Assembly (NCBI GenBank): GCA_038065815.1
Contig: JBBTQF010000021.1
Span: 1-57,511, forward strand
Length of the DNA stretch: 57,511 nt
Reading direction: 5' to 3'
Source of the DNA: Patescibacteria group bacterium
GTDB lineage: Bacteria; Patescibacteriota; Patescibacteriia; UBA9934; CAMTUG01
The position numbers and the translations under genes are program-made. Positions 20,163 to 51,979 of this stretch are shown piece after piece (position 1 is the first letter of the stretch; each line of letters starts with the position of its first letter). The notes under the pieces are model-generated. The model did no database searches and was not told where the DNA came from. It saw only the letters and a list, made by a program, of their open reading frames with translations.

Positions 20163-20537
20163 TCATTTGTCTGTATCAGTCGGCATCGGGTCGAGTTCAA
20201 AGACGACAGCCGCGCCTTCTTCCTGATCCTTACAAAAAATACGCGCCAAATAGGAGAGCGTCTGTACCTTGCTTCCATGCGCAAGCCTCGACAGGTCCTC
20301 GTTGTTGACGATCTGCATCATCTGCTCGTAGCGCCGTACTGTACGAATACGGCGCAACAATTTTTCTATCTTGCCATTCTTGAGAACAGCGCGAATCTCT
20401 ACAACATCTCCGGCGCGCAACCAGCATGGCCCCCAACACTCCGATCGTACTAGCAGATCTTTTTCACCTTGAGTGATGAGATTATAGGTCGTTCGTGAGA
20501 CCCACAAGACGAGCAATCCTTTTTTTGATCGTGTCAT
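20163..20537 (-). CDS. ASCH/PUA-like domain protein (tentative)
   Basis: 124-aa ORF whose size and ...GDVVEIR...IRTVRRY pattern resemble ASCH domains. Weak call. Confidence 0.4.
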   Translation of the reverse strand: MTRSKKGLLVLWVSRTTYNLITQGEKDLLVRSECWGPCWLRAGDVVEIRAVLKNGKIEKLLRRIRTVRRYEQMMQIVNNEDLSRLAHGSKVQTLSYLARIFCKDQEEGAAVVFELDPMPTDTDK

Positions 20538-20617
20538 GCTTCCTCCGGCCTGTCACACTAGCGCACAGACGCCCTTGCGTCAATCCAAGCACCAGCAGTA
20601 GAATACTTGCCGAATCT

Positions 20618-22264
20618 ATGCAGACCCCTCGTTATCGTGTTATTTCCCGTTGGAGCGTTCGTTTGAGCGTTTTAGGCGCAATGCTTTTGTTCATTGTTTC
20701 GTTTGCCGTGGTCTTTCCGCAGTATACGTTTGGCATCCTTGAGCAGGACGATTTTCGTTTGGGTCTTGATCTGCGAGGCGGTACGCATTTGGTCTATGAG
20801 GCCGACATGAGCGACATCGCCGAGGCAGAGCGTGGTTCTGCGCTCTCTGGCGTAAAGGACGTTGTTGAGCGTCGCGTGAACGCGTTTGGCGTTGCGGAAC
20901 CTATCGTGCAGACGACTGTTACCGACGGCCATCATCGCATTATCATTGAGCTTGCCGGCGTGCTCGACGTAACGCAAGCCGTTCAGCTCATTGGTGAGAC
21001 ACCGATTCTTGAGTTCAAGGAGCAGAATCCAAATTTTGATGTTGAGCCTAACGAGACGCAACAATCTATTATTGATTCCGCAAATACAATCACGCAACAG
21101 AAAGCGGATGAGGCTTTGCAAATGGCGCTTGCTGGTGAATCTCTTTCCGTCATCGCATCAAGTTATGGCGTTCTGACTGGTGAGGTTACTGTGAAAGAGG
21201 GCGAGGGTTATGACGAGGCGATCTCGGCTGTTCGTGACAGCACTCTCATCGCAGGTACAGTCCTTCCGTTGGTTTATGATGTTGCAGACGGCTGGACGAT
21301 TTTAAAGTTTTTGGAACAAACAGATGCTGGGTATCGTTTTGAAGAAGCTCTCTTTTTTGAGACGCGCTTTGAGCACCTCGATTCGTATCAGTCGGCGTTG
21401 TGGCAGAATACGGAGCTTTCCGGAAAGGATCTTAAAAATGCACAGGTCGTTTTTGATCCAAATACAAATGAGCCGTATATTCTTCTTACGTTCAACGAGA
21501 ATGGCGCGAAGTTGTTTGAAGAGATTACAGGCCGTAACGTCGGTTTTCCCGTCGCGATTTTTCTCGACGGTGAGGTTATCAGCGCACCAACAGTTAATGA
21601 GAAGATCGTAGGTGGAGAGGCACAGATTCAAGGGAACTTCACATTGCCCGAGGCCAAACTTTTGGCACAGCGTTTGAACGCCGGAGCTCTTCCTGTCCCG
21701 CTTGAAATCATCTCGCAACAGACAGTGGGGCCAACGCTCGGTAAGGAATCACTTGATTTGAGTTTGATGGCAGGACTCATCGGTTTTTTGCTTGTTATCT
21801 TGTTTATGATTTTTTACTACCGTTTGCCGGGAGTTCTGTCCGTGCTCGCACTCATTCTCTATGTCGCACTAAACTTGTTTTTTTGGAAGCTCTTGGATGT
21901 GACAATCACACTTGCGGGTATTGCAGGCTTCATTTTGTCCATGGGAATTGCCGTTGACGCCAACGTGCTCATTTTTGCGCGTCTTAAAGAAGAGTTGGAC
22001 TCTGGACGAGATCTCCCGACCGCAGTCGAGGAGGCCATGAGGCGTGCATGGACCTCGATTCGTGATGGCAACATGACCACACTCATTGCGACCGCGATTT
22101 TGTTCTGGTTTAGCACGAGCTTTATCAAAGGCTTTGCGCTCACGCTCGCGATCGGTGTGCTGTTGTCTATGTTCTCGGCAATCGTTGTCACGCGCGCCTT
22201 ACTGCGTCTTGTTGCAGGTTGGCGTTTTGTAAAACTGGGCTGGTTGTTCGGTGTCAAAAAATAG
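20618..22264 (+). CDS. secD: protein translocase subunit SecD
   Basis: N-terminal TM segment, LGLDLRGGTHLVYEA, a periplasmic domain, and a C-terminal 6-TM block with GFILSMGIAVDANVLIFARLKEE. The start is taken at MQTPRY (20618); the listed 20495 start overlaps the upstream antisense gene. Confidence 0.9.
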   Translation: MQTPRYRVISRWSVRLSVLGAMLLFIVSFAVVFPQYTFGILEQDDFRLGLDLRGGTHLVYEADMSDIAEAERGSALSGVKDVVERRVNAFGVAEPIVQTTVTDGHHRIIIELAGVLDVTQAVQLIGETPILEFKEQNPNFDVEPNETQQSIIDSANTITQQKADEALQMALAGESLSVIASSYGVLTGEVTVKEGEGYDEAISAVRDSTLIAGTVLPLVYDVADGWTILKFLEQTDAGYRFEEALFFETRFEHLDSYQSALWQNTELSGKDLKNAQVVFDPNTNEPYILLTFNENGAKLFEEITGRNVGFPVAIFLDGEVISAPTVNEKIVGGEAQIQGNFTLPEAKLLAQRLNAGALPVPLEIISQQTVGPTLGKESLDLSLMAGLIGFLLVILFMIFYYRLPGVLSVLALILYVALNLFFWKLLDVTITLAGIAGFILSMGIAVDANVLIFARLKEELDSGRDLPTAVEEAMRRAWTSIRDGNMTTLIATAILFWFSTSFIKGFALTLAIGVLLSMFSAIVVTRALLRLVAGWRFVKLGWLFGVKK

Positions 22265-22269
22265 TTTAT

Positions 22270-23166
22270 ATGGTATTTGATGTTATCAAAACGAAAAAGA
22301 TATGGTTTGCGCTTTCTGGTTTGTTGATTGGAGGTAGCATCATCGCTCTTGCGGTGTTTGGATTGCGCATGGGTATTGATTTCACTGGCGGATCGCTCAT
22401 GACAGTACAATTCGAAAACGCGCCTACAACGGATGCAGTACGTTCCTCAATTGTATCGTTCGGTTATGAAGGCACTCGCGTACAGTCAACAGAAGGCGGC
22501 GCATTTATCGTGCGTCTGCCAAGTCTAGCAGAGGAGGAGCATCAAGCCGTGCTCTCCAACCTTGAGGCGCAGTTTGGAGCATTCGAAGAACAGCAGTATC
22601 AACTTGTTGGACCGGTGTTTGGTGCGGAGCTCCTTAAAAAAGCGATTTGGGCGATTGTGCTCGTTCTTACACTCATTACACTTTATGTAACCTATGTATT
22701 CCGAAAAGTTTCTGATCCGGTTGCATCATGGAAGTATGGCGTTATCACGATGATTGCCGCTTTCCATGACATTATTATTCCGATTGGACTTTTCGCTATT
22801 TTGGGGTATTTCCTCAACTATCAAATTGATTCAGCCTTTGTGGCGGCGATTCTCACAGTGCTTGGATACTCAATCAACGATACGATTATAGTGTTTGACC
22901 GTGTGCGTGAGAATTTGATGCATAGATCGAGTGCGGAGAGTCTGGAAGAAACCGTTAGTAAGAGTGTACGTCAAACGGCTGTGCGCTCCATTAACACTTC
23001 GGTCACGACACTGCTCGCGCTTTTTGCTATTTTATTTTTCGGCGGTGAAACAACGCGCGCGTTTGCTCTTGCACTGATCGTCGGCATCATTTCCGGAACG
23101 TATTCGTCAATTTTTATCGCGAGTCCATTGCTTATTGTGTGGGAAAAGTGGAGCCGTAAGGCATGA
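22270..23166 (+). CDS. secF: protein translocase subunit SecF
   Basis: GIDFTGGSLMTVQF, LGYSINDTIIVFDRVREN. The start is taken at MVFDVIKTKK, just after the secD stop. Confidence 0.9.
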   Translation: MVFDVIKTKKIWFALSGLLIGGSIIALAVFGLRMGIDFTGGSLMTVQFENAPTTDAVRSSIVSFGYEGTRVQSTEGGAFIVRLPSLAEEEHQAVLSNLEAQFGAFEEQQYQLVGPVFGAELLKKAIWAIVLVLTLITLYVTYVFRKVSDPVASWKYGVITMIAAFHDIIIPIGLFAILGYFLNYQIDSAFVAAILTVLGYSINDTIIVFDRVRENLMHRSSAESLEETVSKSVRQTAVRSINTSVTTLLALFAILFFGGETTRAFALALIVGIISGTYSSIFIASPLLIVWEKWSRKA

Positions 23167-23208: not shown

Positions 23209-24798
23209 ATGCCGTTTTTTGCAATCACGTTTGATCTTTCCGGAATTGAGGCCCTACTTGCACGACCGGATATCCTGCTGACCAACTTATTGGTTTATGT
23301 CGGATGGATTCCGATTTTTGGAGTGCTTGTGTGGGGCTTTCTTGAAGTTTGGTTGCATCACCGCCAGGAGCATTATCGTTTGCACCAAAATTACGTTTTA
23401 CTTGCGATTGACGCTCCGAAAATGACAGAGCAGAGCCCTATGGCAATGGAGCACGTTTTTGCGACTATCGCGGCTGTTTGGGGAGGTCCGAATTTTCGTG
23501 AAAAATGGATTGACGGTGAGGTCTCGCCGATTTTTAGTTTTGAGCTTGTGAGTATCGGCGGTTATATTCAGTTTTTTGTCCGCGTGCCGAAAAAGTATCG
23601 CGACCTGGTTGAGGCCGGTCTTTATTCAGCTTATCCAGATATTGAAATCACAGAAGCCGAGGATTACGCGACCTCGGCGCCGGACAAATACCCAGACGAG
23701 AATTATCGTGCGTGGGGCTGTGAGCTAAAACTCAAAAATGATAATCATTTCCCAATTCGTACCTATCAAATGTTTGAACATCGTCTTTCGCAGGAACTCA
23801 AAGACACGATTGGGCTGACGCTCGAGCAGTATGCGAAGTTGAAGCCCGGCGAGCAGTTATGGACGCAGATTATCGTCCAGAATGATCCGGAGCAACATTG
23901 GGTCAAGGTTGGAGTGAAATATATTAACGAGACTATTGGGAAACCAGAGAAAAACGCGCACAAGACTTCGGTTTTTGGTGGGGTCGTTTCAGGGCTGAAG
24001 TCGTTGTCAGAGCAAGTTGCGTTTCAGGCAATCGGTTTTGGCGGCGGGGAACACGCTGAAGAGAAAAAGGAGGATCCGTGGAAATTTTTGCGTTCAACAC
24101 CACTCGACAAAGTGAGGCTTGATCTTGTTTCGCAGAAAATCGGCAAGCCTGGATGTCGGGTGAAAATCCGCCACGTCTATATTGCCAAGCACGCGTCGTG
24201 GAATAAAAGCGCGCGCGATAAAATGCTCAAGGGCGTATTTTATCAATTTGCACATCTCGATAGTAATGCCTTTGGTCGTGTTAAAAGCGTAAATCCGAAG
24301 GATGACTATTTTTGGCAGAAGTGGTTTAAGGAAATTCGCGCGACAAACGTGGTGCGAGCGTACAAAAAGCGTGATGGTGAACGTGGTGGCAAACCATTCA
24401 TTCTGAATACGGAGGAGCTCGCCACGCTTTGGCACATGCCGTCAATTTTGGTTCTCGCGCCGTCCGTTAAGAAGACCCTTGCAAAGCGCGCTGAACCGCC
24501 GGTGCAATTGGAGATTGCAGATGAGCTTACTCCTGACATCATGACGCCAGCTCGTCTTCAGCACGTGCTGGAGATACTGCCAGTTGAGGTGGTCGAGCCA
24601 CGGTTGCCGGCGATGGTGCGAAAGGTTGAGAAGGTTGAAAGGCATGAGAAGGTTGAAAAACCAAAAGCGTTGGATGCACAAAGAACGGTCGTAAAACCAA
24701 AAGAGATTCCGGATGTGCTCCGTGTTCTGCTTGACCCCGATGTTGAGCTCGAGGATGTTGGTCTTTCCGATCCGCCTCAATCTAGAGACGCCATCTAA
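23209..24798 (+). CDS. membrane-anchored protein homologous to the N-terminal half of the 52471..54942 ATPase
   Basis: One N-terminal TM segment. FSFELVSIGGYIQFFVRVPKKYRDLVEAGLYSAYPDIEITEAEDY, FPIRTYQMFE and ILNTEELATLWHMPS align by eye with FAFEIVSHEKLIKFYVTIPRRYQEFISQQMTAQHPDAFIEEVEDY, FPFRTFRKLE and ILNVEEMASLWHLPL of the fused protein. Confidence 0.65.
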   Translation: MPFFAITFDLSGIEALLARPDILLTNLLVYVGWIPIFGVLVWGFLEVWLHHRQEHYRLHQNYVLLAIDAPKMTEQSPMAMEHVFATIAAVWGGPNFREKWIDGEVSPIFSFELVSIGGYIQFFVRVPKKYRDLVEAGLYSAYPDIEITEAEDYATSAPDKYPDENYRAWGCELKLKNDNHFPIRTYQMFEHRLSQELKDTIGLTLEQYAKLKPGEQLWTQIIVQNDPEQHWVKVGVKYINETIGKPEKNAHKTSVFGGVVSGLKSLSEQVAFQAIGFGGGEHAEEKKEDPWKFLRSTPLDKVRLDLVSQKIGKPGCRVKIRHVYIAKHASWNKSARDKMLKGVFYQFAHLDSNAFGRVKSVNPKDDYFWQKWFKEIRATNVVRAYKKRDGERGGKPFILNTEELATLWHMPSILVLAPSVKKTLAKRAEPPVQLEIADELTPDIMTPARLQHVLEILPVEVVEPRLPAMVRKVEKVERHEKVEKPKALDAQRTVVKPKEIPDVLRVLLDPDVELEDVGLSDPPQSRDAI

Positions 24799-24825
24799 TC
24801 TTCTCTCCAATTTGTCTCTTTTATT

Positions 24826-26688
24826 ATGACCACGTTTCCGACGCCACCTTCATACGACCACGACCATGAAAATGATGTCATTTATTTTGCGCGCACGAAT
24901 TTTCGTAATCAGATGCGCAAGTTTGGTATCAAAACGGATGACCGCCGCCGTCATATGTATCTGATCGGCAAAACCGGCGTCGGAAAAACGACGCTTCTTG
25001 AAAATATGGTACTGGCGGATATCTATAAGGGGCACGGACTTGCGATTGTGGATCCGCACGGAGATTTTGCCGAAAAAATTATTGATTACATTCCAGATCA
25101 TCGTATTGAAGATGTTGTCTACTTTAATCCGGCGGATATGGATTTTCCGACGTCGTTTAATATTTTGGAGTCAGAAGACGACACACACAAGCACTTGATC
25201 GCCAGTGGTCTGATGGGAGTCTTCAAAAAGATTTGGCCAGATGTGTGGAGCGCGCGCATGGAGCATATCATGAATAATTGTATTCTGGCCTTGCTCGAGA
25301 ATCCGGGGAACACATTGCTCGGCATCAATCGTATTCTCGTTGACCAACATTTTCGTCGTAGCATCATTGTCAATTTGCGAGACCCTGTGGTCAAGTCTTT
25401 TTGGATCACAGAGTTCGAGCAGTGGGACGTTAAATTTCGCAGTGAGGCTATCGCCCCAATTCAAAACAAAGTTGGTCAGTTTTTATCAACGTCACTCATT
25501 CGCAACATAGTCGGTCAACCAGTCTCCTCAATCGTACCGCGCGAGATGATGGACACGCGTAAAATTTTCATTATCAACCTTGCCAAGGGTCGCATTGGTG
25601 AGGACGCCTCGCGTCTCATGGGCGGTATGCTCATTACCAAAATGCAACTTTCGGCAATGGAGCGCGTGGATATGCTGGAAAAGGACCGTCAAGATTTCTA
25701 TCTCTATATTGACGAGTTTCAAAACTTTGCCACCGAGTCATTTGCGAACATCTTGTCCGAGGCGCGTAAATATCGCCTTGCTCTTATCATGGCTCACCAG
25801 TACGTAGAACAGCTTGAGGAGGAGGTCGCGGCGGCCGTGTTTGGCAACGTGGGGACGATAGTTTCATATCGTGTAGGCGCTGGAGACGCAGAGAAACTTG
25901 CCATCGAATTCGCTCCACGTTTTTTGGAGGAAGATTTGGTGAATCTTCCAAAGTTTCATATTTATTTGAAGCTGATGATTGACGGAATTGCCTCTGATGC
26001 GTTTTCAGCAACGACCTTGCCCCCGATTGCGGCGAAAACGAACAGTTTACAGCGTGTGATTGACGCCTCGCGCAGAAAGTATGGCCACAAGCGCGAGGAG
26101 GTTGAGAACTCAATTATTTCATGGAGCGAGTCAAGACCGGAAGGAGCAACACCCTCGGCAGTAGCGGCGCTTGGACTTCGAGAGGAGAAGCAAGGACGAA
26201 AGCTCAATGAGTATGAGTGTACGCGTTGTGGCAAGAAGTTACTTTTGCCAGTTGAGCTCGATAAAAGTCGTCCAATTTATTGTGAGACGTGTATTGAGTT
26301 GGTGAGGGCGGAACGCAAAGCAGGCAAACCACCCGAGGTAAAAAAACCGGAGGAAAAGAAGGAGTCCGAGACACCAAAACTCGCACAGACGGAAGCGATT
26401 CAGAAGCCGGTAGGTGAGACGATGTCGTTAAGTGCGCTTAAGGGAGATCCAAAAATAGAGGTCAAATCGGTTACAGCGGAGAAGCCGGCTCCTGTCGTGC
26501 CTACACCCTCCTCACCAAGCCCCACGAGCACAGAGGAACACAAACGCCGTCGCCGGCGTCATGGCGGAGGTGGAGCTCATCATTCGACAGGTTTGACCCC
26601 TTCAACAAGCTCCGGGTCTTCGACTGGTACAAGCACTTCACACACTCCCAGGCCGAGCTCCGGTGGGGACGAATTATTCCCGTGGTAA
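24826..26688 (+). CDS. VirD4/TraD-like (FtsK-HerA superfamily) P-loop ATPase with C-terminal zinc ribbon and disordered tail
   Basis: Walker A LIGKTGVGKTT, DPHGD, Walker B YLYIDEFQNF, and RKYRLALIMAHQY. A C-x2-C-x17-C-x2-C motif (CTRCGKKLLLPVELDKSRPIYCETC) is followed by a K/E/P/S/T-rich tail. Confidence 0.75.
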   Translation: MTTFPTPPSYDHDHENDVIYFARTNFRNQMRKFGIKTDDRRRHMYLIGKTGVGKTTLLENMVLADIYKGHGLAIVDPHGDFAEKIIDYIPDHRIEDVVYFNPADMDFPTSFNILESEDDTHKHLIASGLMGVFKKIWPDVWSARMEHIMNNCILALLENPGNTLLGINRILVDQHFRRSIIVNLRDPVVKSFWITEFEQWDVKFRSEAIAPIQNKVGQFLSTSLIRNIVGQPVSSIVPREMMDTRKIFIINLAKGRIGEDASRLMGGMLITKMQLSAMERVDMLEKDRQDFYLYIDEFQNFATESFANILSEARKYRLALIMAHQYVEQLEEEVAAAVFGNVGTIVSYRVGAGDAEKLAIEFAPRFLEEDLVNLPKFHIYLKLMIDGIASDAFSATTLPPIAAKTNSLQRVIDASRRKYGHKREEVENSIISWSESRPEGATPSAVAALGLREEKQGRKLNEYECTRCGKKLLLPVELDKSRPIYCETCIELVRAERKAGKPPEVKKPEEKKESETPKLAQTEAIQKPVGETMSLSALKGDPKIEVKSVTAEKPAPVVPTPSSPSPTSTEEHKRRRRRHGGGGAHHSTGLTPSTSSGSSTGTSTSHTPRPSSGGDELFPW

Positions 26689-26690
26689 GT

Positions 26691-28175
26691 ATGCCTTCAA
26701 ATCAAGATGACTACTCTGGAGCTTTCAGCTCCGTTCAACCACAGCCAGTGGTGGCGCCAAAGCAAGCGTCTGAATTTGAGGCGTTCGTGGCCCGTCGTCA
26801 CGAGCCGCCGGAAACGCTTCCGATGCGCGGGGCCGTCTCTGATGCAGATATTTCCTTGTTTGGTCAGACGAATTACAGTCGCGGTTATGCCTCGGCGCGT
26901 TATATTTTTGGCATCAAACGAAAGGATCGCCGTCGTCACCTGTACGTCATTGGTAAGAGCGGTGTTGGAAAAACAAAATTGCTGGAACAGCTTATTCGCG
27001 CGGACATTCATTATGGACACGGCGTCGGGGTGATTGATCCACACGGAGATTTGATCAGCGCCATCATCGAGTTTGTGCCAGAAAATCGCATCAATGATGT
27101 TGTGATCATAGATCCTGCGGATCGTGATTTTCCCATCTCATTCAACCCAATCGCCAACGTGGCGGATGAAGACAAACACATGGTGACGGATTCCATCATC
27201 GAGATTTTTAAAAAGCAATTTGCCAGCGATTGGTCACCACGCATTGAACACTTGCTTCGTTTCTCAACGCTGGCCATGATTGATTATCCGAAAGGCACTC
27301 TCAACGGCATGGTGTCTCTGCTTTCAAGTGGCCCTTATCGCAGTAAGGTGATTGAGCACATCAAGGACACTGTCGTCCGGCGTTTTTGGGCGATTGAGTT
27401 TCCAGAGTGGTCGCAACGTTATGATGCCGAGGCAGTGTCGCCGTTGCTCAACAAACTCGGGCAATTGCTTGCCGATCCCTTGATGCGCAATATTTTTGGT
27501 CAGCAAGAGAGCAAGGTTGACCTTTACGAGATCATGCGTAAAAAACAGATTTTACTGGTCAACCTTTCAAAGGGGCGTATTGGGGATGATAAAAGTGCCT
27601 TTTTCGGAGCGGTGCTCATCACCAAACTTTATCAAGCCTCGATGCAACGAATCCGACTGCCGGAAAAAGAGCGCACGCCATACTACTTGTACGTTGATGA
27701 GTTTCAGAATATTGCCACAAAGACTTTTGAGAATATTTTGGCCGAGGCACGCAAGTTTGGACTCAATCTCACAGTCGCCAATCAAAATCTTTCCCAGCTC
27801 TCGGCGAGTTTGCGTTCGTCACTGTTTGGCAACGTGGCCAGTATAGTCGTTTTTCAAATCAGCGCGGAAGACGCGGCGATTATGGAGATGGAGATGAAGC
27901 CCGTGTTTGAGGTGCAGGATATGATTAACTTATCCGAGCGCGAGGTTTATGTGAAGATGACTATTGATGGACGTCGTTGGGATCCATTCTCGGCAGATGT
28001 CCTTTCTGTCAATCCACCAAAACATACTCCATTCACGGAAAAGATTATGATGCAGAGTCGAGAGAAATATGCACGGCGTCGGGAAGAAGTGGAAAAACAG
28101 CTTGAGGGAGGCGATGCGGAAGAACAAAAAAGGCAGGAGGCGCAGAAGATTTCCATGGATGAGATTATTGTGTAA
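26691..28175 (+). CDS. VirD4/TraD-like P-loop ATPase, paralog of 24826..26688
   Basis: VIGKSGVGKTK, DPHGD, YLYVDEFQNI and RKFGLNLTVANQN, collinear with the upstream ATPase core. The start is ATG 26691, 3 nt after the upstream stop. Confidence 0.75.
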   Translation: MPSNQDDYSGAFSSVQPQPVVAPKQASEFEAFVARRHEPPETLPMRGAVSDADISLFGQTNYSRGYASARYIFGIKRKDRRRHLYVIGKSGVGKTKLLEQLIRADIHYGHGVGVIDPHGDLISAIIEFVPENRINDVVIIDPADRDFPISFNPIANVADEDKHMVTDSIIEIFKKQFASDWSPRIEHLLRFSTLAMIDYPKGTLNGMVSLLSSGPYRSKVIEHIKDTVVRRFWAIEFPEWSQRYDAEAVSPLLNKLGQLLADPLMRNIFGQQESKVDLYEIMRKKQILLVNLSKGRIGDDKSAFFGAVLITKLYQASMQRIRLPEKERTPYYLYVDEFQNIATKTFENILAEARKFGLNLTVANQNLSQLSASLRSSLFGNVASIVVFQISAEDAAIMEMEMKPVFEVQDMINLSEREVYVKMTIDGRRWDPFSADVLSVNPPKHTPFTEKIMMQSREKYARRREEVEKQLEGGDAEEQKRQEAQKISMDEIIV

Positions 28176-28186: not shown

Positions 28187-29209
28187 ATGCGCATTCTTGG
28201 AATTGAAACAAGCTGTGATGAAACGTCAGTGGCGATTGTCGAAGGCCAAGGGGAACGTGTCAGGCTGAAGGCGCAACTGACGAACTCACAGATGAAAGAG
28301 CACGCAAAATTTGGAGGCGTCGTGCCAGAAGTTGCGGCACGGCGTCACGTTGAGTTTCTGATGCCGATGCTTGAGCGGGTAGTCACTCGGGACGGAAAGG
28401 GAATTGATGCGGTTGCCGTGACCTACGGCCCTGGTCTTGTTGGAGCCCTGCGTGTTGGTGTTGAGTCCGCTAAGACGCTCGCAACCATCTGGGACAAACC
28501 GCTCATCGGAGTTAATCATCTCGAAGGACATATTTACGCAAATTGGCTTGATCGCACAGCGCGTCAAAAACCGATTGTCTTTCCAGCACTCTGTTTGATT
28601 GTTTCGGGTGGTCATACCGAGATTATTTTTATGCCCAGGCATGGGATGTATGAGCTCGTTGGCGAAACGCGCGACGATGCCGCTGGCGAGGCGTTTGATA
28701 AAGTCGCCAAGATGTTGGGACTCGGGTATCCCGGAGGTCCGGAGGTTGCTAAAATGGCGTTGAAAGGTGATGAGAAACGGTTTGATCTACCTCGCCCGAT
28801 GCTCGATTCCGATGACTTTGACTTTAGCTTTTCCGGGTTGAAGACGGCGGTGTTGTACACTATTCGTGAGCTCAAAAAAAATCCTTCTGCAAAAACAAAA
28901 GCTGATCTGTGTGCCAGTTTTCAGGCAGCTGCCGTTGGTGTGCTTGTCGGCAAAACAACCCGAGCAATTGAACAGATGAAACCAAAGACCGTTTTACTTG
29001 GAGGCGGTGTCTCTGCAAATGTGCAGTTACGAAAAAAGCTCGGCAATGCGATCAAGAAGAGCTCTCCTAAAACGCTCTATGTTATTCCGCCGATGAAATA
29101 TACGACCGACAACGCAGGTATGATCGCGGCGGCGGGCTACTTCAAACTTTTGCGTGATGAGACCTCCGACCCTCTCACACTCGAGGCGGATCCAAATCTT
29201 TCGTTATGA
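28187..29209 (+). CDS. tsaD: tRNA N6-adenosine threonylcarbamoyltransferase TsaD
   Basis: ILGIETSCDETSVAIV, VNHLEGHI, SGGHTEI and GGGVSAN motifs. Confidence 0.9.
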   Translation: MRILGIETSCDETSVAIVEGQGERVRLKAQLTNSQMKEHAKFGGVVPEVAARRHVEFLMPMLERVVTRDGKGIDAVAVTYGPGLVGALRVGVESAKTLATIWDKPLIGVNHLEGHIYANWLDRTARQKPIVFPALCLIVSGGHTEIIFMPRHGMYELVGETRDDAAGEAFDKVAKMLGLGYPGGPEVAKMALKGDEKRFDLPRPMLDSDDFDFSFSGLKTAVLYTIRELKKNPSAKTKADLCASFQAAAVGVLVGKTTRAIEQMKPKTVLLGGGVSANVQLRKKLGNAIKKSSPKTLYVIPPMKYTTDNAGMIAAAGYFKLLRDETSDPLTLEADPNLSL

Positions 29210-29727
29210 ATACGAAGCAAAACAATTACGCTTTTATTGATAGTCAGAACTTGAATTTGGCTATTCGTGAGCTTGGATGGAAGATAGATTTTGCTAAGTT
29301 TAGGGTTTATCTGAAAGAGAAGTACGGGGTTTCGCAGGCTTACATGTTTATTGGTTTTGTTTCCGGAAACCAGGCCCTCTATACTAGACTTCAGAAGTGT
29401 GGATTTATTTGCGTTTTTAAGCCGACGCTAGTTCATGCTGACGGAACAGTGAAAGGAAACTGCGATGCAGAATTGGTTTTGCATGCGATGATTGAATATC
29501 CGAATTACGATCAGGCCGTTATTGTAACGGGAGACGGCGATTTTCAGTGTCTTGCAAAGTATTTTGTTGAACAGGGAAAACTCAAGTGTTTGCTCATTCC
29601 CAATCGAAAAAAGTATTCGGCTCTATTGAAGTACAATATATTCTGGAAATTTCATCGTTTTATGAACGATTTGCAGACACTTCTTGAATACAAAAAGAAA
29701 GGGCCCCATAAGGACGGAACCTTATAG
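29206..29727 (+). CDS. NYN-domain (LabA-like) putative RNase
   Basis: NNYAFIDSQNLNLA... and VIVTGDGDFQCL are the acidic signature segments of NYN/LabA proteins. ATGA overlap with tsaD. Confidence 0.8.
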   Translation: MNTKQNNYAFIDSQNLNLAIRELGWKIDFAKFRVYLKEKYGVSQAYMFIGFVSGNQALYTRLQKCGFICVFKPTLVHADGTVKGNCDAELVLHAMIEYPNYDQAVIVTGDGDFQCLAKYFVEQGKLKCLLIPNRKKYSALLKYNIFWKFHRFMNDLQTLLEYKKKGPHKDGTL

Positions 29728-29778: not shown

Positions 29779-29859
29779 ATGTCAAACACTCCTAACTACG
29801 ACTCATCCCACTTCGCTCCTTCGGAGCTACGAGGGATTTCGTCAAAAATATATGAGTAA
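29779..29859 (+). other. 26-codon upstream ORF plus hairpin element preceding paralog 1
   Basis: Encodes MSNTPNYDSSHFAPSELRGISSKIYE*. The first 9 codons copy the paralog N-terminus, and the TAA stop overlaps the main ATG (29852) by 8 nt. Contains the hairpin GCTCC-TTC-GGAGC (29815-29827). A near-identical unit sits at 35269..35349. Confidence 0.5.
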
Positions 29860-31582
29860 GACCCCAATTTTTGACTCAAAAGTAAAAGCGATCCTCGACG
29901 CCACGCAGCCCGGCGAACGGGTGTGTGAAATGACCGGGGAGAAGTGGATGATGGATGCCGAGGAGATTTCTTGGTACAAAAAGTTCAACGTGCCACCGTC
30001 ACCGTTTTCGCCGCGCGTGCGCATGTGGCACATGACCAACTTTTTTGCCGTGTATCAGTGGTGGTGGAATAAGCATCCAGAAACCGGCGCGCCGGTGTTG
30101 AGCTATGTCCATCCGGCTTCGAAGATTAAGGTCTTGCCGGACAAGGAGTGGTTTGAGCGTGAGATGGCGGATTATGGACGTGCGATTGACTCGAGTCGAT
30201 CGTTCCTCGATCAATTCCGCGCGCTTCAACTTGACGTGCCGATTAACGCCACGCGCAACTTTGTTGATCCAGAGAATTCCATCGCCACGGTTTCGCTCGG
30301 CGATCGTAATGGTTATTTTGTCTCTGCGTCGCAATCGGAGGATTCGTTTTACTTGCTCGACACCCAGTTTGGCACGCGCACCATGGACGCTAACGGTGGC
30401 ATCAACGTGACGGATTCTTACCACATCAATCATTCGTTGCGTTTGCATGGCTGTCAGTTTATTTACGAGTCGCGCGATTGCATGAGCTCGTCTTTTTTGT
30501 TTGATTGTCGTAACTGCGAGTTCTGTTTTGGTGCCGCCAATAAACGTAATCGCAAATACGTCTGGTTTAATGAGCAGTTGAATAAGGAAGAATGGGAACG
30601 CCGACGGGCAGAAGTTGATCTTGGAAGCTATGCGCAAATGACTGCGACATTTGATCGTTTTACCAAATTGATTCGCGAAGAAGCCATTTGGCCGCAGAAT
30701 TTTAACGAAGGCTCAGAAGACTGCTTGGGCGATTACTTAATCAAGTGCAGTGATTTACAACATTGCTTGTACGGCATCGATAGTCACGGCGGATATTTTT
30801 GCTACGGTTTGTATAATGGCAATGACAACGCTTTTAGTTGCGCCATTCCTGGCGAGCATAATTATCAATCTGGGCCCGTTGGCAATACGTCGAACTCACG
30901 ATTTTCTTGTACGCTCGTGCGTTGTGACAATTTAGAGTACAGCATGAACTGCTACGACTGTACCGATTGTTTCGGTTGTGTCGGTCTGCGCAAAAAGCAA
31001 TTCCATATTTTTAACAAAGCGTATGCTGAAGAAGAATATTGGAAGGTCCTCGACGAGATCAAGTGCGCCATGCTTGAGCACGACGAATATGGCCGTCCGT
31101 TTCCGATCAACTTTGGATTCAACTATTATCCTGATTCCGGGCCGGTGATGTATTTTGGTGCGACGATTGAAGATTGGGATGTGGTCGGACGCGACCACTT
31201 CGAGGCCTCCGCCGACGGCGCATTTGGCACGCTGTCACTTGATGATCCGCGGATGCGCGAAGTCGATCAACTACCTGATCATATTCGCGACCTCGACGAC
31301 GACTGGATCGGTAAGCCTATTGCTGATCGCGCCATCAATCGCCCGTTCGCCCTTACCAAGGCTGAAGTCAACTATCTTAAAAAGTTTAACCTAGCCGCTC
31401 CGCGCCGACACTTCACCGCCCGCATGCTCGACTTGTTCTATTCTATGAGTAGCGGTCCCTTCATTGAGCAGACCTGTTTCTCCTGTGCCAAGCAGGTTGT
31501 CATGGCCACCAATCGCGCGTATCCTGAGCGTAAGGTTTATTGCAATGTATGTTATTTGAAGTATCTTGAAGTTCACGGATAA
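29852..31582 (+). CDS. Cys-rich repeat protein, tandem paralog 1 of 5 (uncharacterised family)
   Basis: MSKTPIFDSKVKAILDA..., FLFDCRNCEFCFGAANKRNRKYVWFNEQLNKEEW, CYDCTDCFGCVGLRKKQFHIFNKAYAEEEYW, and the C-terminal CFSC-x18-CNVCYLKYLE. The listed 29684 start is an out-of-frame-conserved extension. Confidence 0.8.
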   Translation: MSKTPIFDSKVKAILDATQPGERVCEMTGEKWMMDAEEISWYKKFNVPPSPFSPRVRMWHMTNFFAVYQWWWNKHPETGAPVLSYVHPASKIKVLPDKEWFEREMADYGRAIDSSRSFLDQFRALQLDVPINATRNFVDPENSIATVSLGDRNGYFVSASQSEDSFYLLDTQFGTRTMDANGGINVTDSYHINHSLRLHGCQFIYESRDCMSSSFLFDCRNCEFCFGAANKRNRKYVWFNEQLNKEEWERRRAEVDLGSYAQMTATFDRFTKLIREEAIWPQNFNEGSEDCLGDYLIKCSDLQHCLYGIDSHGGYFCYGLYNGNDNAFSCAIPGEHNYQSGPVGNTSNSRFSCTLVRCDNLEYSMNCYDCTDCFGCVGLRKKQFHIFNKAYAEEEYWKVLDEIKCAMLEHDEYGRPFPINFGFNYYPDSGPVMYFGATIEDWDVVGRDHFEASADGAFGTLSLDDPRMREVDQLPDHIRDLDDDWIGKPIADRAINRPFALTKAEVNYLKKFNLAAPRRHFTARMLDLFYSMSSGPFIEQTCFSCAKQVVMATNRAYPERKVYCNVCYLKYLEVHG

Positions 31583-31606
31583 AACCAAAACCCCGCTTGC
31601 GCGGGG
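31581..31606 (-). terminator. intrinsic terminator for the minus-strand RNA
   Basis: The minus strand reads CCCCGC-GCAA-GCGGGG followed by UUUUGGUUUU. On the plus strand the hairpin has no U-tract after it. Confidence 0.7.
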
Positions 31607-31693
31607 AGTTGGCAGTCTCGATTCGGTACGAGTGACCTGGATTGCTACCTAAATCAAGAGTATCCTAATTTAGGATTGTCGTCAAACTGTTTG

Positions 31694-31764
31694 TGGTGGA
31701 GGCGCGGGGATTTGAACCCCGGAAACCATGGGTAGCAATCCAGGTTTCGTATCAAACCGCCCCC
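31694..31764 (-). ncRNA. tRNA-like element (Ala-type acceptor, T-arm, encoded CCA, no D-arm)
   Basis: The minus strand reads GGGGGCG GUUUGAUAC GAAACC-UGG-AUUGCUAC-CCA-U-GGUUUC CGGGG-UUCAAAU-CCCCG CGCCUCC A CCA. It has a 7-bp acceptor stem with G3.U70, a perfect T-arm with a consensus-like loop, and a long arm whose loop carries UGC. It is only 71 nt and lacks a D stem-loop. Confidence 0.5.
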
Positions 31765-31776
31765 ACCACAGTAAAA

Positions 31777-31782
31777 ATTATA
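31777..31782 (-). promoter_or_regulatory. -10 box (TATAAT) for the minus-strand tRNA-like transcript
   Basis: The minus strand reads TTGGGA, 18 nt, TATAAT, 6 nt, then UGUGGU-GGGGGCG. This puts the predicted start at about 31770. Confidence 0.45.
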
Positions 31783-31789
31783 TTAAAAT

Positions 31790-33529
31790 ATGGCTTCCAC
31801 TCCCAACTACGATGCTAAAGTAAAAGCGATCCTCGATGCCACAACGCTTGGTGAGCGTGTTTGTGCGATCACAGGAGAGAAGTGGACGCAGGACTCCAAG
31901 GAGCTGGAGATTTACCGTCGCTTCAATGTACCGCCACTGAAGATTTGCACCAACGCTTTATGGAAGTGGATGGCATTTTATGATGCCGGATTTCAATTTT
32001 GGTGGAATAAGCACGCCGAGACGGGGAAGCCGGTGCTCAGTTTTCATCATCCCGCTTCCGGGATCCGCGTTCTGCCCGACGTCGAATGGCATGCTAAAGA
32101 TTTTTCCACCATCACTGCCGATGTCGATCCGACCAAATCGTTTTTCGATCAGCTTCGCGCTCTCGAACTCTGTGTTCCTTTTATGGCGACGTTTGATCGC
32201 CAGCCACCGGAGAACTCGATCACTCTTTTCTCCTTTGGCGATCGCAATAGCTACTTCACTTTCGCATGTCAGTCCGAGCGCTGTTTCTTTTCTGCTGGCG
32301 CCTTTCAAGCTGAAGGTTCGTCGCTCTTGTGGCTCACCAATCAAATCACCGACAGTCATTGGATTTTGAAATCCGACCGTCTGTTTCGCTGTCGCTATGT
32401 TCGTGAGTCGTTGGATTGTATCGACAGTGCCTTTTTGTTTGACTGCCGTAATTGCCAAAATTGTTTTGGGGTCGTCAACAAACGCAATCGTCAATACCTG
32501 TTCATGAATGAGCAGTTGAGCAGGGCCGAGTACGAAGCCCGAATGTTGACGATTGATCTTGGCAAGCGATCGGAAGTGGAAAAATACAGCCAGCAATTCG
32601 ATGCACTGCTCGCCAAGGAAGGCGTTTGGCCGGAAAACTTCAACGTCAACACCCAAGAATCCGTTGGTGAATATTTGGTTAACGCTGTGCGCTCACAGCA
32701 ATGCTTTGCCGCCGCAGACGCTCCGACCGATCAGTATCGCAGTGCGTGGTCTTATGGACTCAATCAACACAACGCTAACATGTGGGGATCGATCGACAGC
32801 AGTGATTGCTATATGTCCGTGGCTTGTCCAAACTCGAGCAAAAGTAATTTTTCTTACCGCTCGTTCCGTTTGGATAACTGCGAGTTCTGCGTCATGTCGT
32901 CGGATCTACGCGATTGTTTTGGGTGTGTAGGTCTGAAGAAAAAACGGTTTTGTATTTTCAACAAACAGTACACGGAGGAGGAATATTGGAGAATCGTCGA
33001 TGAAATCAAATCGGCGATGTTGGAGAGGGGAGAATATGGAACGTATTTGCCAACTGCGTTGTCGACGACTTTCGTGCCAGAGTCTGGCGCGGTGGTCTAT
33101 ACCGGCGCTTCACCCGAGGAGCTGGCCATGTTTGGAGGGAATTTGTTTGGCGCCGAAGACGATGGAGCCACCGGAGCCGATCGCATTGATCCAAGCAAGG
33201 CTCGCAAGCGCGAGGACATTCCGGACGCGATTGATGATTTAACGGACGAATGGGTCGGCGTACCCATTTACGACGAAGTTTCCAAACGCACTTTCACCTT
33301 TTTGCGTCCAGAAGTGGAGCATTACCGCCGCCTGCGTGTTGCCCCGCCAAACATCCATTTTATTCGCCGTCTGCATGAAGTTTCTCACGCCGGCCAGGTG
33401 GCGGCCTTCGAACCTGCCAGCTGTACCAAATGCCAACAAGCGGTCACCATCGCCAAAAATATTCGCTACCCCCACCGCCGCATTTATTGCAGAGCCTGTT
33501 ATACGGCGTTTGTGGAAAAGAATGGATGA
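31790..33529 (+). CDS. Cys-rich repeat protein, tandem paralog 2 of 5
   Basis: MASTPNYDAKVKAILDA..., FLFDCRNCQNCFGVVNKRNRQYLFMNEQL, CFGCVGLKKKRFCIFNKQYTEEEYW, and CTKC-x18-CRACYTAFVEKNG. Confidence 0.8.
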   Translation: MASTPNYDAKVKAILDATTLGERVCAITGEKWTQDSKELEIYRRFNVPPLKICTNALWKWMAFYDAGFQFWWNKHAETGKPVLSFHHPASGIRVLPDVEWHAKDFSTITADVDPTKSFFDQLRALELCVPFMATFDRQPPENSITLFSFGDRNSYFTFACQSERCFFSAGAFQAEGSSLLWLTNQITDSHWILKSDRLFRCRYVRESLDCIDSAFLFDCRNCQNCFGVVNKRNRQYLFMNEQLSRAEYEARMLTIDLGKRSEVEKYSQQFDALLAKEGVWPENFNVNTQESVGEYLVNAVRSQQCFAAADAPTDQYRSAWSYGLNQHNANMWGSIDSSDCYMSVACPNSSKSNFSYRSFRLDNCEFCVMSSDLRDCFGCVGLKKKRFCIFNKQYTEEEYWRIVDEIKSAMLERGEYGTYLPTALSTTFVPESGAVVYTGASPEELAMFGGNLFGAEDDGATGADRIDPSKARKREDIPDAIDDLTDEWVGVPIYDEVSKRTFTFLRPEVEHYRRLRVAPPNIHFIRRLHEVSHAGQVAAFEPASCTKCQQAVTIAKNIRYPHRRIYCRACYTAFVEKNG

Positions 33530-33530
33530 T

Positions 33531-35267
33531 ATGAGTAACACCCCCAACTACGACGCCAAAGTAAAAGCCATCCTCGACGGGCTCACGCCCGGGGAGCGGG
33601 TTTGTGCTATCACGGGCGAGAAGTGGATGATGACGGAGGAGGAGATTGGGTGGTACAGGAAGTTCAATGTCCCGCCGTCGAAGTATTCTCCAAGTGCGCG
33701 CATCAAACTGGTTATGGGATACTTTGTTGTTTTTGACATGTGGTACAACAAGCACGCCGACACGGGCGCGCCAATTATCTCCACAACCCACCCCGCCTCA
33801 GGCATTCGTGTCCTCCCAGATTTGGAATGGTTTAATCGAGATTTCATTTCTCACGGACAAAATTTGCAGGCATCAAATTCTTTTTTTGACCAACTCTACG
33901 CACTGAGTCGACGTGTTCCTGTTGCCGCTACCTTTAATTATAAGGTCCCGGAAAACTCGGTGGCTTTTATTTCGTTTGGTGATCAAGACAGCTACTTTGT
34001 GCTGGCCTGTAAGTCCAAGCGCTCCTTCTTTTGCGGGAATGCCCATGATGTGGAGGATTCGGCTGAACTCGTCGCCGTGGAAAATGTCAGACAGTCATAC
34101 GCAGTGGTGCACAGCCAGCGTATTTTTAATTGCCGTTTTTTGCTGGAATGTTATGACTGCATAAACTTGCATTTTCTTTTTGATTGCCGAAACTGTGAGT
34201 TCTGTTTTGGTGCTACCAATCAACGGAATAAAAAGTATTTATGGTTCAATGAGCAGTTGAGCAAGGAAGAGTGGGAGCGACGTTTTGCCGAGATTGACCT
34301 TCGCTCACGTGAGGCACTTGATGAGATACAGCAACATTTTTCGGAGTTGATGCAGACACAAACTGTCTGGCCGGAGAATTTTAATGTCAATGCCGTCGAC
34401 TCAAGCGGAGAATACATTATTGAGTCGACAGATGTGCGTGACGGCTACTACATCATGCGTGGCTGTCGTAATTTAGATAACAGCTGCTACGCCTTTGGCT
34501 TACCGTCGCATGATTGCTACACCGTCTGCGCGCCGATTGGCGCCTCGGATTGTTATTACGGGATTGGACAAGAGCAGTGCTCACAGGTGCGCTTCGCCTT
34601 GTCTATCCTAGCTCGTAACATGAATACCGAATATTGCAATGTTTGTTTTGATTGCGAGAATTGCTTTGGTTGTATCGGTCTGCGTCACAAGAAGTTTTGT
34701 ATTTTGAACAAGCAATACACGGAAGAGGAGTACTGGAAGGTCCTTGATGAACTGAAGTGTGCCATGCTTGACCGTGGAGAATACGGCGAGCTGCCACCTA
34801 TGAAGTTTGGGACTCAACACTGGAGCGGCTCTGGTGCTCGGGTGTTGTACGGAGCGAGCAAGGATGAGTGTTTGAAGCTTGGTGCCGTCGACTTTCCGGT
34901 CGGCGCAGAGGGGTCTGAAGGCCCAATTGTTGATTCCGCGTCCCTGCATTCACTCGACTCAATTCCAGACCGCATCGACTCAATCGAAGAGGTGACTGGC
35001 AAACCGTACTTCGATCCCGCTGCAAATCGTCGTTTTAGTTATCAAAAGACCGAGCTCGAACTGTACGCCAGGCTCGGTGTAGCACCGCCGCGCAAACATC
35101 CGACGCGTCGACTGACAGATCATTACCACGAAATGAGCATGGCTGTTTTTGAGGACGGACACTGTGAAAAGTGCAACCAACAAATACGCGTTGCCAAGAA
35201 TATGACGTATCCAAATCGAAAATTATATTGCAAATCCTGTTATTTGGCGTTTATCGAAACTCGCTAA
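33531..35267 (+). CDS. Cys-rich repeat protein, tandem paralog 3 of 5
   Basis: MSNTPNYDAKVKAILDG..., starting 1 nt after the paralog-2 stop (junction AATGGATGATATGAGT). FLFDCRNCEFCFGATNQRNKKYLWFNEQL, CFDCENCFGCIGLRHKKFCILNKQYTEEEYW, and CEKC-x18-CKSCYLAFIE. Confidence 0.8.
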   Translation: MSNTPNYDAKVKAILDGLTPGERVCAITGEKWMMTEEEIGWYRKFNVPPSKYSPSARIKLVMGYFVVFDMWYNKHADTGAPIISTTHPASGIRVLPDLEWFNRDFISHGQNLQASNSFFDQLYALSRRVPVAATFNYKVPENSVAFISFGDQDSYFVLACKSKRSFFCGNAHDVEDSAELVAVENVRQSYAVVHSQRIFNCRFLLECYDCINLHFLFDCRNCEFCFGATNQRNKKYLWFNEQLSKEEWERRFAEIDLRSREALDEIQQHFSELMQTQTVWPENFNVNAVDSSGEYIIESTDVRDGYYIMRGCRNLDNSCYAFGLPSHDCYTVCAPIGASDCYYGIGQEQCSQVRFALSILARNMNTEYCNVCFDCENCFGCIGLRHKKFCILNKQYTEEEYWKVLDELKCAMLDRGEYGELPPMKFGTQHWSGSGARVLYGASKDECLKLGAVDFPVGAEGSEGPIVDSASLHSLDSIPDRIDSIEEVTGKPYFDPAANRRFSYQKTELELYARLGVAPPRKHPTRRLTDHYHEMSMAVFEDGHCEKCNQQIRVAKNMTYPNRKLYCKSCYLAFIETR

Positions 35268-35268
35268 T

Positions 35269-35349
35269 ATGTCCAAAACGCCCAATTACGACGCATCCCA
35301 CTTCGCTCTTGCAGAGCTACGTAAGGACTGCGTCAAAATTTATGAATAG
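35269..35349 (+). other. 26-codon upstream ORF plus hairpin element preceding paralog 4
   Basis: Encodes MSKTPNYDASHFALAELRKDCVKIYE*. Same 73-nt offset to the main ATG (35342) as at paralog 1. The hairpin is GCTCT-TGC-AGAGC (35305-35317). Confidence 0.5.
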
Positions 35350-37072: not shown

Positions 37073-37074
37073 GT

Positions 37075-37442: not shown

Positions 37443-37496
37443 GGGTCCTTTTCGTAGTGATGACTATAAGATACCATTCTTTCAGAATTTGTCAAT

Positions 37497-37637
37497 ATGT
37501 CCAACACACCGGTCAAAATGGAAAACACCTGCTTTGATTGCGGCAAGCCGGTCACCACTTACGTCAACAATCTTTTTACCGAGCGTCATGTATACTGTCG
37601 AGAGGATTACCTCAAGTTTATCGAACAAAATGGCTGA
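37497..37637 (+). CDS. 46-aa collapsed paralog (N-terminal 5 residues fused to the C-terminal zinc ribbon)
   Basis: Encodes MSNTPVKMENTCFDCGKPVTTYVNNLFTERHVYCREDYLKFIEQNG*. It keeps the family junction (..AATGGCTGATATGTCC) with paralog 5, and the last Cys of the ribbon is replaced by Asp. It may be a remnant rather than a functional gene. Confidence 0.4.
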   Translation: MSNTPVKMENTCFDCGKPVTTYVNNLFTERHVYCREDYLKFIEQNG

Positions 37638-37638
37638 T

Positions 37639-51963: not shown

Positions 51964-51979
51964 GCTATACTATAAGCCT

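Follow-up and report, generated by a model that had tools for sequence, protein, structure and literature searches.

Fused and split paralogs of a DUF8128 class of type IV coupling proteins on a Patescibacteria chromosome

The 57,511-nucleotide (nt) stretch of DNA analyzed here (the window; contig JBBTQF010000021.1 of assembly GCA_038065815.1, a Patescibacteria group bacterium) encodes a membrane protein and three P-loop ATPases, at two separate places. We conclude with high confidence that these genes are chromosomal paralogs of a DUF8128 class of type IV coupling proteins (T4CPs), of which one is fused into a single polypeptide and one is split into a membrane-anchored DUF8128 protein and separate ATPases. 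The four genes, with lengths in amino acids (aa), are as follows:

23209..24798, plus strand: DUF8128 membrane protein, 529 aa
24826..26688, plus strand: ATP1, T4CP-type ATPase with no transmembrane (TM) segment, 620 aa
26682 (GTG) or 26691 (ATG)..28175, plus strand: ATP2, second T4CP-type ATPase paralog, 497 aa from the GTG
52471..54942, plus strand: fused DUF8128::T4CP protein, 823 aa

Results

Architecture and paralogy of the two modules

The open reading frames (ORFs) lie where a first-pass annotation of the sequence had placed them, i.e. a single-TM protein followed by two paralogous ATPases, with the fused gene further downstream. That annotation had matched the 23209..24798 protein by eye with the N-terminal half of the fused protein, and pairwise BLASTP bears the match out (aa 109-434 against fused aa 99-381, 24% identity over 327 aa, E = 2e-16). 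It had also described the C-terminal half of the fused protein as a third copy of the ATPase, and the BLASTP identities agree with this: 41% between ATP1 and the fused protein (E = 5e-109), 37% between ATP2 and the fused protein (E = 2e-91) and 43% between ATP1 and ATP2 (E = 2e-127). Judged by these values, which are far beyond chance, the N-domain protein and the fused N-half are paralogous, as are the three ATPases.

In the DUF8128 membrane protein a single hydrophobic segment (aa 21-49, nt 23269..23355; helix 20-59 in the AlphaFold2 model) is followed by a cytoplasmic DUF8128 domain (aa ~60-420), which ends with LATLWHMP (24418..24441), and then by a disordered C-terminal tail. ATP1 starts 27 bp after the end of this gene and carries its Walker A motif, GKTGVGKT, at 24967..24990 and its Walker B motif, YLY(I/V)DEFQN, at 25699..25725; further downstream are a zinc ribbon, CxxC-x17-CxxC (26218..26292), a Ser/Thr/Pro-rich linker and the C-terminal tip DELFPW (26668..26685). 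The ATP2 reading frame overlaps or abuts the ATP1 stop codon, depending on which start is used, the ATG at 26691 being more likely than the GTG at 26682; its Walker A motif (GKSGVGKT) lies at 26952..26975, its Walker B motif (YLY(I/V)DEFQN) at 27684..27710, and it ends in the tip DEIIV. The fused protein has a TM helix at aa 3-24 (nt 52477..52542), a DUF8128 domain at aa ~40-385 (nt 52588..53625), a Walker A motif at 53713..53736 and a Walker B motif at 54454..54480. The first-pass annotation had listed DPHGD, YLY(I/V)DEFQN and RK(Y/F) motifs for the ATPases and these are found in all three, the last as EARK(Y/F)xL; its Walker A pattern, GK(T/S)GVGKT, does not extend to the fused protein, which reads GKSGSGKT. 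Neither ATP1 nor ATP2 has a TM segment, and the fused and DUF8128 proteins have one hydrophobic segment each. Basic residues follow the TM helix in both of the latter and therefore the DUF8128 domain and the ATPase should be cytoplasmic, as read from the sequence.

The ATPases are coupling proteins of the VirD4/TraD/TrwB type

The ATPases had been assigned to the VirD4/TraD/TrwB type from their motifs, and this assignment holds by Pfam thresholds, by sequence search of the PDB and by fold. TrwB_AAD_bind (PF10412, cut-off 20.5) matched ATP1, ATP2 and the fused protein with 45.6, 40.5 and 37.8 bits respectively, T4SS-DNA_transf (PF02534, cut-off 20.1) with 21.4, 35.0 and 40.3 bits, and TraG-D_C (PF12696, cut-off 22) matched all three with 25-27.6 bits. 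DUF87 was marginal (21.8-27.9 bits against a cut-off of 23.2), and ATP1 additionally matched zf_Tbcl_2. When a profile of the fused family was searched against the PDB, TrwB (3e-6) and DotL (2e-5) came out as the best matches. The more specific NCBIfam equivalog and subfamily models (TraD, VirD4 of the CD1115 type and others) were not reached, the best scores being 43-54 bits against cut-offs of 250-650. There was no Pfam match to FtsK_SpoIIIE in the module proteins. Membership of the VirB4 family is argued against by the VirB4 profiles, i.e. there was no match to CagE_TrbE_VirB, AAA_10 or TraC_F_IV and TIGR00929 scored 18 bits against a cut-off of 643.1. The two-helix N-terminal transmembrane domain (TMD) that is canonical for T4CPs is not present in the fused protein, the DUF8128 protein, ATP1 or ATP2.

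PF26449 (DUF8128) is the precomputed annotation of both window proteins that carry the domain and of all but one (a 306-aa fragment) of 240 listed homologues; clustering at 50% identity divides the family into 3,240 clusters (E<=1e-3). Database searches with the window proteins returned homologues that were all from Patescibacteria, mainly Candidatus (Ca.) Uhrbacteria, and the fused protein is ~60% identical across many Uhrbacteria. Zero papers on PF26449 or DUF8128 were found in the literature searched.

DUF8128 is predicted to fold like the N-terminal domain of VirB4

AlphaFold2 models of the two proteins that carry the domain (pLDDT 82.6 for the fused protein, above 90 in the core of the DUF8128 protein) were compared with the PDB using Foldseek. 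The 13 best matches of the DUF8128 model were all TrwK/VirB4 chains of R388 (E from 5e-5 to 4e-3, with probability 1.0 for the best, TMq ~0.3). TrwB, HerA and FtsK were not among the listed matches, so that DUF8128 appears to resemble the VirB4-specific N-terminal domain and not the P-loop fold. The model of the fused protein aligned with full-length TrwK/VirB4 from end to end (~925 columns, E = 3e-15), and its C-terminal half aligned with TrwB and Cag-beta (E~1e-12, TMt 0.55-0.61). In the same model an all-alpha insertion (aa 486-599, nt 53926..54267) lies between the strands at 464-467 and 617-621, which is where the all-alpha domain of T4CPs sits. The models therefore suggest a VirB4-N-terminal-domain-like fold for DUF8128, a likeness that is new here, and a domain of this fold would be more than a membrane anchor. 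TrsD of pGO1, which is said to resemble the VirB4 N-terminus, was tried as a counterpart of DUF8128 and ruled out (hhalign probability 0.2%).

Distant homologues lie within transfer clusters of plasmids

A tblastn search of plasmids with the fused protein gave 44 records that cover at least 80% of the protein at 24-28% identity, and its N-domain alone gave 37 records (haloarchaea, Bacillus, Priestia and Niallia). The split N-domain protein had no tblastn match among the plasmids, i.e. only the N-domain of the fused paralog reaches the plasmid homologues directly; with hhalign the split-family profile aligned with the Embleya protein over 305 columns across DUF8128, including the ELAxLxHxP motif. 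On the Embleya plasmid the DUF8128::T4CP gene is in a cluster with TrbL_4 (VirB6-like), PrgI (VirB3-like), a VirB4-like ATPase (P-loop_TraG/AAA_10/TraC_F_IV), Replic_Relax and NlpC/P60+SLT genes. A 27.5-kb B. subtilis plasmid carries a DUF8128::T4CP gene together with genes for a replication-relaxation protein, conjugal transfer proteins, a VirB4-like ATPase and a lytic transglycosylase/C40 peptidase. A Halorussus limi plasmid (L088:1353-13012) carries a T4SS_pilin gene of the VirB2 type, a gene for a 1092-aa ATPase, a split DUF8128 gene and a gene for a T4CP-like ATPase. The last of these layouts, with two large ATPases around one DUF8128 gene, echoes the split module of the window.

These full-length homologues sit within clusters of type IV secretion system (T4SS) genes, which argues that the family is a conjugation-derived coupling protein and not an unrelated stand-alone machine. 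The suggestion in the first-pass annotation of a stand-alone system, to be given up if relatives were embedded in T4SS or conjugative elements, is therefore only partly upheld: the copies in this genome have no detectable T4SS genes nearby, but distant relatives on Embleya, Bacillus and haloarchaeal plasmids are embedded in just this way. The class is thus not a new stand-alone system or a new kind of machine.

Two phages of Firmicutes also carry homologues: Bacillus phage G (gp156, JN638751.1 90955..91878) and the deep-sea thermophilic phage D6E (ORF23, L091:7947-10205), in which the DUF8128::T4CP-like gene sits between a partition gene and an integrase gene. PMC5313138 makes no mention of Replic_Relax proteins as the MOB-L relaxases of pLS20, and only the label 'Replic_Relax family' is used here.

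The modules occupy conserved neighborhoods

Four long contigs and 80 GTDB representative loci were analyzed with a BLAST script. An ATP1-type ATPase gene was directly downstream of the DUF8128 gene in 59 of the 71 evaluable loci, with gaps that were mostly -4 to +9 nt (often a 4-nt overlap or 1-9 nt apart), so that the two genes are often translationally coupled. Furthermore, the fused Bacillus plasmid T4CP is colinear with the split genes of locus L021. The claim that the N-domain protein and the ATPase work as one complex is supported to this extent: adjacency and colinearity with fused plasmid homologues make it very probable that the two work together.

In 47 of 62 evaluable loci a secF gene precedes the module on the same strand, and in 30 of these it does so within 500 bp. 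The position directly after secDF, remarked upon in the first-pass annotation, is therefore conserved for the split module, and this conservation is new here. As the outer flanks vary, secD-secF-DUF8128-ATPase is the conserved core of the locus. The linkage is lineage-restricted: several loci, among them some titled Falkowbacteria and Kuenenbacteria, lack it even though their upstream flank is long enough. The setting of the fused gene is also conserved: an ORF of ~157-176 aa lies upstream and one of ~200-240 aa downstream, with cysS before the former and dnaX after the latter. Split and fused modules occur in the same genome, and are a few kb apart in L044, L049 and L069. The proximity of pilM and a pilin gene, offered previously as context for the module, is not kept in relatives.

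No ATPase gene followed the DUF8128 gene in 12 of the 71 evaluable loci. In five loci (L067, L076 and L082-L084, at positions ~10000-17300) a stand-alone DUF8128 gene without a downstream ATPase recurs; upstream of it is a ~340-aa ORF (373 aa in L082), and downstream are an unannotated ~390-430-aa ORF, two large unannotated proteins of ~780-880 and ~640-670 aa and a ~365-aa ORF. Only L084 is titled Falkowbacteria, the others being unclassified metagenome-assembled genomes. Many GTDB records with Patescibacteria-type loci (L009, L013, L020, L023-L025 and others) are titled 'uncultured Gammaproteobacteria bacterium', so that record titles are unreliable for taxonomy.

Queries for VirB4, VirB6-like, PrgI, Replic_Relax and hydrolase proteins (from pGO1, Embleya and Bacillus) had no tblastn match in the window or in 87 Patescibacteria loci (~1.5 Mb). 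The earlier statement that the window has no relaxase, VirB4 or channel genes thus stands as far as Pfam scans and tblastn can test it, and small ORFs without a Pfam match might be very divergent VirB2/3/8-like proteins.

ATP2 is associated with a par array and with the C-terminal tip of ATP1

Downstream of ATP2 lies an array of five paralogs of a Cys-rich cytoplasmic family of ~577 aa (par), which sequence and start analysis indicate to be probable genes:

29852..39255, plus strand: whole par array
29852..31582, plus strand: first par gene
31790..33529, plus strand: second par gene
33531..35267, plus strand: third par gene
35342..37072, plus strand: fourth par gene
37639..39255, plus strand: fifth par gene

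Each copy ends in a CxxC-x17-CxxC ribbon like that of ATP1, and the proteins have no signal peptide or TM segment. Searches of Pfam, NCBIfam, PADLOC and the PDB returned no match for the family. Its homologues number more than 1,500, are of strikingly uniform length and also occur at other loci; the named ones are from Uhrbacteria or unclassified Patescibacteria, apart from one with a 'Pseudomonadota' label.

ATP2 is restricted to a sublineage of the relatives, and wherever it occurs a par array of 1-6 copies comes next (7 of 7 loci, with the array directly after ATP2 in L001, L004, L009, L010, L011, L036 and L093). In this genome only, tsaD and a gene for an NYN-domain protein (29206..29727, a predicted RNase) lie between the two. 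This association of the par array with ATP2 is new here, and the two may also be linked in function. ATP1 orthologues usually have the CxxC-x17-CxxC ribbon, a low-complexity linker and a conserved C-terminal tip. Among L001-L081 the tip reads D[DE][LIV]FPW, or nearly so, in precisely the loci that have ATP2, and is elsewhere most often PGQxIxF(D/E); the C-terminal end of ATP2 is [DE][DE]I[IV]V. The ATP1 tip therefore covaries with ATP2 and the par array, which is likewise new here, and this switch suggests that the tip binds a partner.

Surroundings of the modules in the window

The genes immediately upstream of the split module and on either side of the fused gene are:

20495..22264, plus strand: secD, true start probably later
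22219..23166, plus strand: secF
51962..52468, plus strand: 168-aa ORF, a conserved neighbor with a 2-nt gap to the fused gene downstream
54945..55529, plus strand: 194-aa ORF, a conserved neighbor before dnaX, with a 2-nt gap to the fused gene upstream

The secD/secF pair (20495..23166) was identified by Pfam matches to SecDF_P1_head and SecD_SecF_C. Between secF and the DUF8128 gene there are 42 bp without a convincing terminator. A scan for promoters and terminators around the module gave counts near the shuffled expectation and is informative only for the absence of a terminator after secF.

An ORF homologous to the 168-aa ORF (about 157-176 aa) precedes the fused gene in loci L005 and L044, and in the P0154 contig a 174-aa ORF overlaps the start of the fused gene by 4 nt. 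Homologues of the 194-aa ORF follow the fused gene in L005, L044 and L049. Neither ORF had a family match in Pfam, NCBIfam, PADLOC or the PDB, and they may be subunits or adaptors of the fused T4CP.

By Pfam scans of the larger ORFs, each of which is a housekeeping gene or has no match, the window is filled with housekeeping genes in a compact, almost single-stranded arrangement. The gene order is clpB-like, a GT4 glycosyltransferase gene (mraY-like), recR, dnaB, folD, glyA, a Mur ligase gene (murC-like), murB, secA, secD, secF and the split module; then tsaD, the NYN gene, the five par paralogs, a hydrolase gene, bacA, mnmA, lepA, recJ and rnhA; and finally pilM, a response regulator gene, a pilin gene, cysS, the 168-aa ORF, the fused gene, the 194-aa ORF and dnaX. 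No tRNA genes and no integrase gene were found in the window. The GC content is flat (0.45-0.52), which together with the ~60% identity of the fused protein across many genomes is as expected for a core gene under purifying selection.

Discussion

A chromosomally fixed coupling protein that may feed a T4SS

As a whole, the explanation that we consider best is that these are chromosomally fixed T4CPs of the DUF8128 class, derived from a T4SS and acting as a motor that feeds the T4SS of the phylum; we regard it as about evenly balanced between right and wrong. The functional unit would consist of a single TM helix, a cytoplasmic DUF8128 domain resembling the VirB4 N-terminal domain and a VirD4/TrwB-type nucleotide-binding domain (NBD) with an all-alpha insertion. 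It would take two forms, i.e. either one polypeptide (52471..54942) or a membrane-anchored DUF8128 protein with soluble ATP1, joined by ATP2 in this sublineage. Its origin would lie in the transfer machinery of monoderm bacteria and archaea, where the same architecture is found next to a gene for a VirB4-like ATPase and, on the bacterial plasmids, next to VirB6-like, PrgI/VirB3-like, Replic_Relax and cell-wall hydrolase genes. The class would later have been duplicated and fixed in housekeeping operons of ABY1-type Patescibacteria (Uhrbacteria and relatives). By analogy with the family, DUF8128 would tether and organize the ATPase ring at the cytoplasmic face of the membrane, and ATP hydrolysis would drive the recognition of a macromolecular substrate and its threading into a membrane channel. 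That channel is most likely the conjugation-derived T4SS of the phylum, encoded elsewhere in the genome, because of the ancestry of the class and its VirB4-like docking domain. Differences in substrate or adaptor specificity would stem from the paralogs and from the ATP1 and ATP2 C-terminal tails.

The literature on T4CPs of Patescibacteria, or of the candidate phyla radiation, that was found consists of one study (Quinonero-Coronel et al. 2025, PMC12102498) and a review. According to that study, VirD4-type T4CP homologues number 5,713 and are spread over 2,918 of the 3,035 Patescibacteria genomes, at about two per genome, with only 148 near virB4; that most T4CP genes of the phylum are remote from virB4 is thus already published. 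The same study derives the T4SS of Patescibacteria from the monoderm MPF-FATA class, places that of the ABY1 class near comF, recG and radA, and states that exaptation of the T4CP homologues "cannot be ruled out" (PMC12102498).

Several points weigh against a motor that feeds the T4SS. The T4CP is the sole T4SS component detectable in the window and the 87 related loci. T4CP homologues are reported from more genomes (2,918) than VirB4 (2,417), and in Ca. Southlakia epibionticum the T4SS is essential and the T4CP homologue dispensable (PMC12102498), which suggests at least partial independence from the T4SS; the transposon sequencing (Tn-seq) paper on S. epibionticum names no T4CP. The conserved linkage to secDF is not explained by a role in a T4SS. 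Finally, the likeness of DUF8128 to the VirB4 N-terminal domain comes from a predicted model with a modest TM-score (~0.3) and is missed by sequence profiles; the N-domain profile matched nothing in the PDB even at E<=10.

Alternative explanations

The secDF operon, the wider distribution of the T4CPs and their dispensability favor an exapted role, in which a T4SS-independent motor would cooperate with SecDF/SecYEG or another non-T4SS channel in the export, insertion or extraction of proteins in cells whose membranes are weakly energized, with par-family proteins or other clients recruited via the ATP1 and ATP2 tails. This role would suit the conserved secD-secF-DUF8128-ATPase core within variable flanks, the short terminator-free gap after secF in the window and the covariation of the ATP1 tip with ATP2 and the par array, as well as the published breadth and dispensability of the T4CP homologues just described (PMC12102498). 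The sec linkage is nevertheless missing in 15 of 62 loci and has gaps of 1-2 kb in many others, and the whole block from murB-secA-secDF to mnmA is syntenic, so that adjacency to the sec genes may be no more than a sign of generally conserved gene order. There are no sec genes near the fused paralog, we found no earlier case of a T4CP working with Sec, and the par proteins have neither a signal peptide nor a TM segment. We consider an exapted protein motor unlikely.

A bolder version, which we think unlikely, joins this role to the fold prediction. DUF8128 T4CPs would have kept an ancestral VirB4-type N-domain, and so link VirB4 and VirD4; the ABY1 copies would be a T4SS-free housekeeping motor that is co-transcribed with SecDF, and ATP2 would serve the Cys-rich ~577-aa family as clients or adaptors.

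Alternatively, the proteins could form a conjugation-independent DNA-handling translocase, i.e. an FtsK- or Ced-like pump for uptake, export or segregation of DNA, which is distinctly improbable. They belong to the FtsK-HerA superfamily and descend from proteins that move DNA in conjugation, the position of the fused gene beside dnaX is conserved, ATP1 has a zinc ribbon, and there are weak NCBIfam matches to the DNA import ATPases CedD and CedB. Those matches, like that to FtsK, fall only in the P-loop region and far under the cut-offs, and adjacency to dnaX may be mere synteny. Moreover, no DNA-binding domain was identified in these proteins, and one TM helix per subunit would alone be insufficient for a DNA channel.

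That the genes are what is left of an integrated conjugative element in decay, or a HerA-type module for defense against phages, is highly improbable despite the plasmid- and phage-borne homologues and the PADLOC matches (mad8 at 44-65 bits, weak HerA/DndH, HerA below 23 bits), since the catalytic motifs are intact in all three ATPases, the fused protein is well conserved across genomes as noted above, the chromosomal position is fixed among housekeeping genes in dozens of genomes, the GC content is flat with no integrase or tRNA gene in the window, there is no nuclease, Sir2 or NurA partner and the PADLOC matches span only the generic P-loop core. A defense system was accordingly rejected (generic matches, no partner genes), as was a mobile island (flat GC content, no tRNA gene and only housekeeping genes in the Pfam scan of the larger ORFs).

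The Patescibacteria comprise a large share of bacterial diversity and have minimal genomes, yet nearly all keep about two coupling-protein-like ATPases, which appear to be uncoupled from the T4SS that is essential for epibiotic growth. What the present analysis adds is the DUF8128/VirB4-like domain, membership of a T4CP class, the conserved secDF and cysS/dnaX operons and the ATP2-par association. Three of its results, namely that DUF8128 marks a distinct class which is the T4CP of monoderm and archaeal transfer clusters, that this class has a predicted VirB4-like N-domain and that the copies reside in conserved operons (secDF; cysS/dnaX), make a vague annotation into a set of testable hypotheses, which concern the membrane docking of the motor, its cargo and the divergence of VirB4 and VirD4.

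Comparison with known coupling systems

The virB4-distant T4CP homologues of Patescibacteria (PMC12102498) are very probably the same genes as those of the window. The accessible text of that study describes no DUF8128 N-domain, no split/fused paralogy and no linkage to secDF, and a term search of it found no mention of SecD.

The window ATPases resemble the canonical T4CPs (TrwB of R388, VirD4, TraD, Cag-beta and DotL) in having a Walker A/B NBD with an all-alpha insertion and in passing the T4CP profiles. The canonical proteins differ in that their TMD is a short pair of helices, in that they lack an N-terminal cytoplasmic domain of ~350 aa, and in being encoded with a relaxase or a T4SS. 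VirB4 (TrwK of R388), whose chains were the only significant structural matches of the DUF8128 model, shares with the fused protein a two-domain layout, with ~400 aa of N-terminal domain ahead of a RecA-like ATPase, and VirB3-VirB4 fusions are reminiscent of the N-terminal TM anchor of the window proteins; in contrast, the ATPase half of the window proteins is closer to T4CPs, and the Embleya cluster has a separate bona fide VirB4-like gene as well. T4CPs that lack a TMD and rely on a separate membrane protein are a recognized architectural class (PMC7431656), and ATP1 and ATP2, which have no TM segment and are encoded beside a membrane-anchored partner, are similar to its classes ii and iii. 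They differ in that the fused paralog has a homologue of the partner as its N-half, i.e. the arrangement reflects gene fission or fusion and not the recruitment of an unrelated accessory protein.

The closest counterparts in architecture are the DUF8128 T4CPs of plasmids, i.e. those of Embleya sp. NBC_00896 (WP_331738717.1) and B. subtilis FUA2231 (WP_345805471.1) and the haloarchaeal split pairs, for none of which was experimental characterization found in the literature searched. They have the same TM helix, DUF8128 domain and VirD4-type NBD, align with 84-93% of the fused protein at 24-28% identity, and exist in fused as well as split forms. The plasmid genes lie in T4SS-type clusters beside a VirB4-like ATPase gene (with Replic_Relax in the bacterial ones), whereas those of the window are chromosomal, comprise three paralogs and are surrounded by housekeeping genes, and ATP1 additionally has a zinc ribbon, a low-complexity tail and a tip motif.

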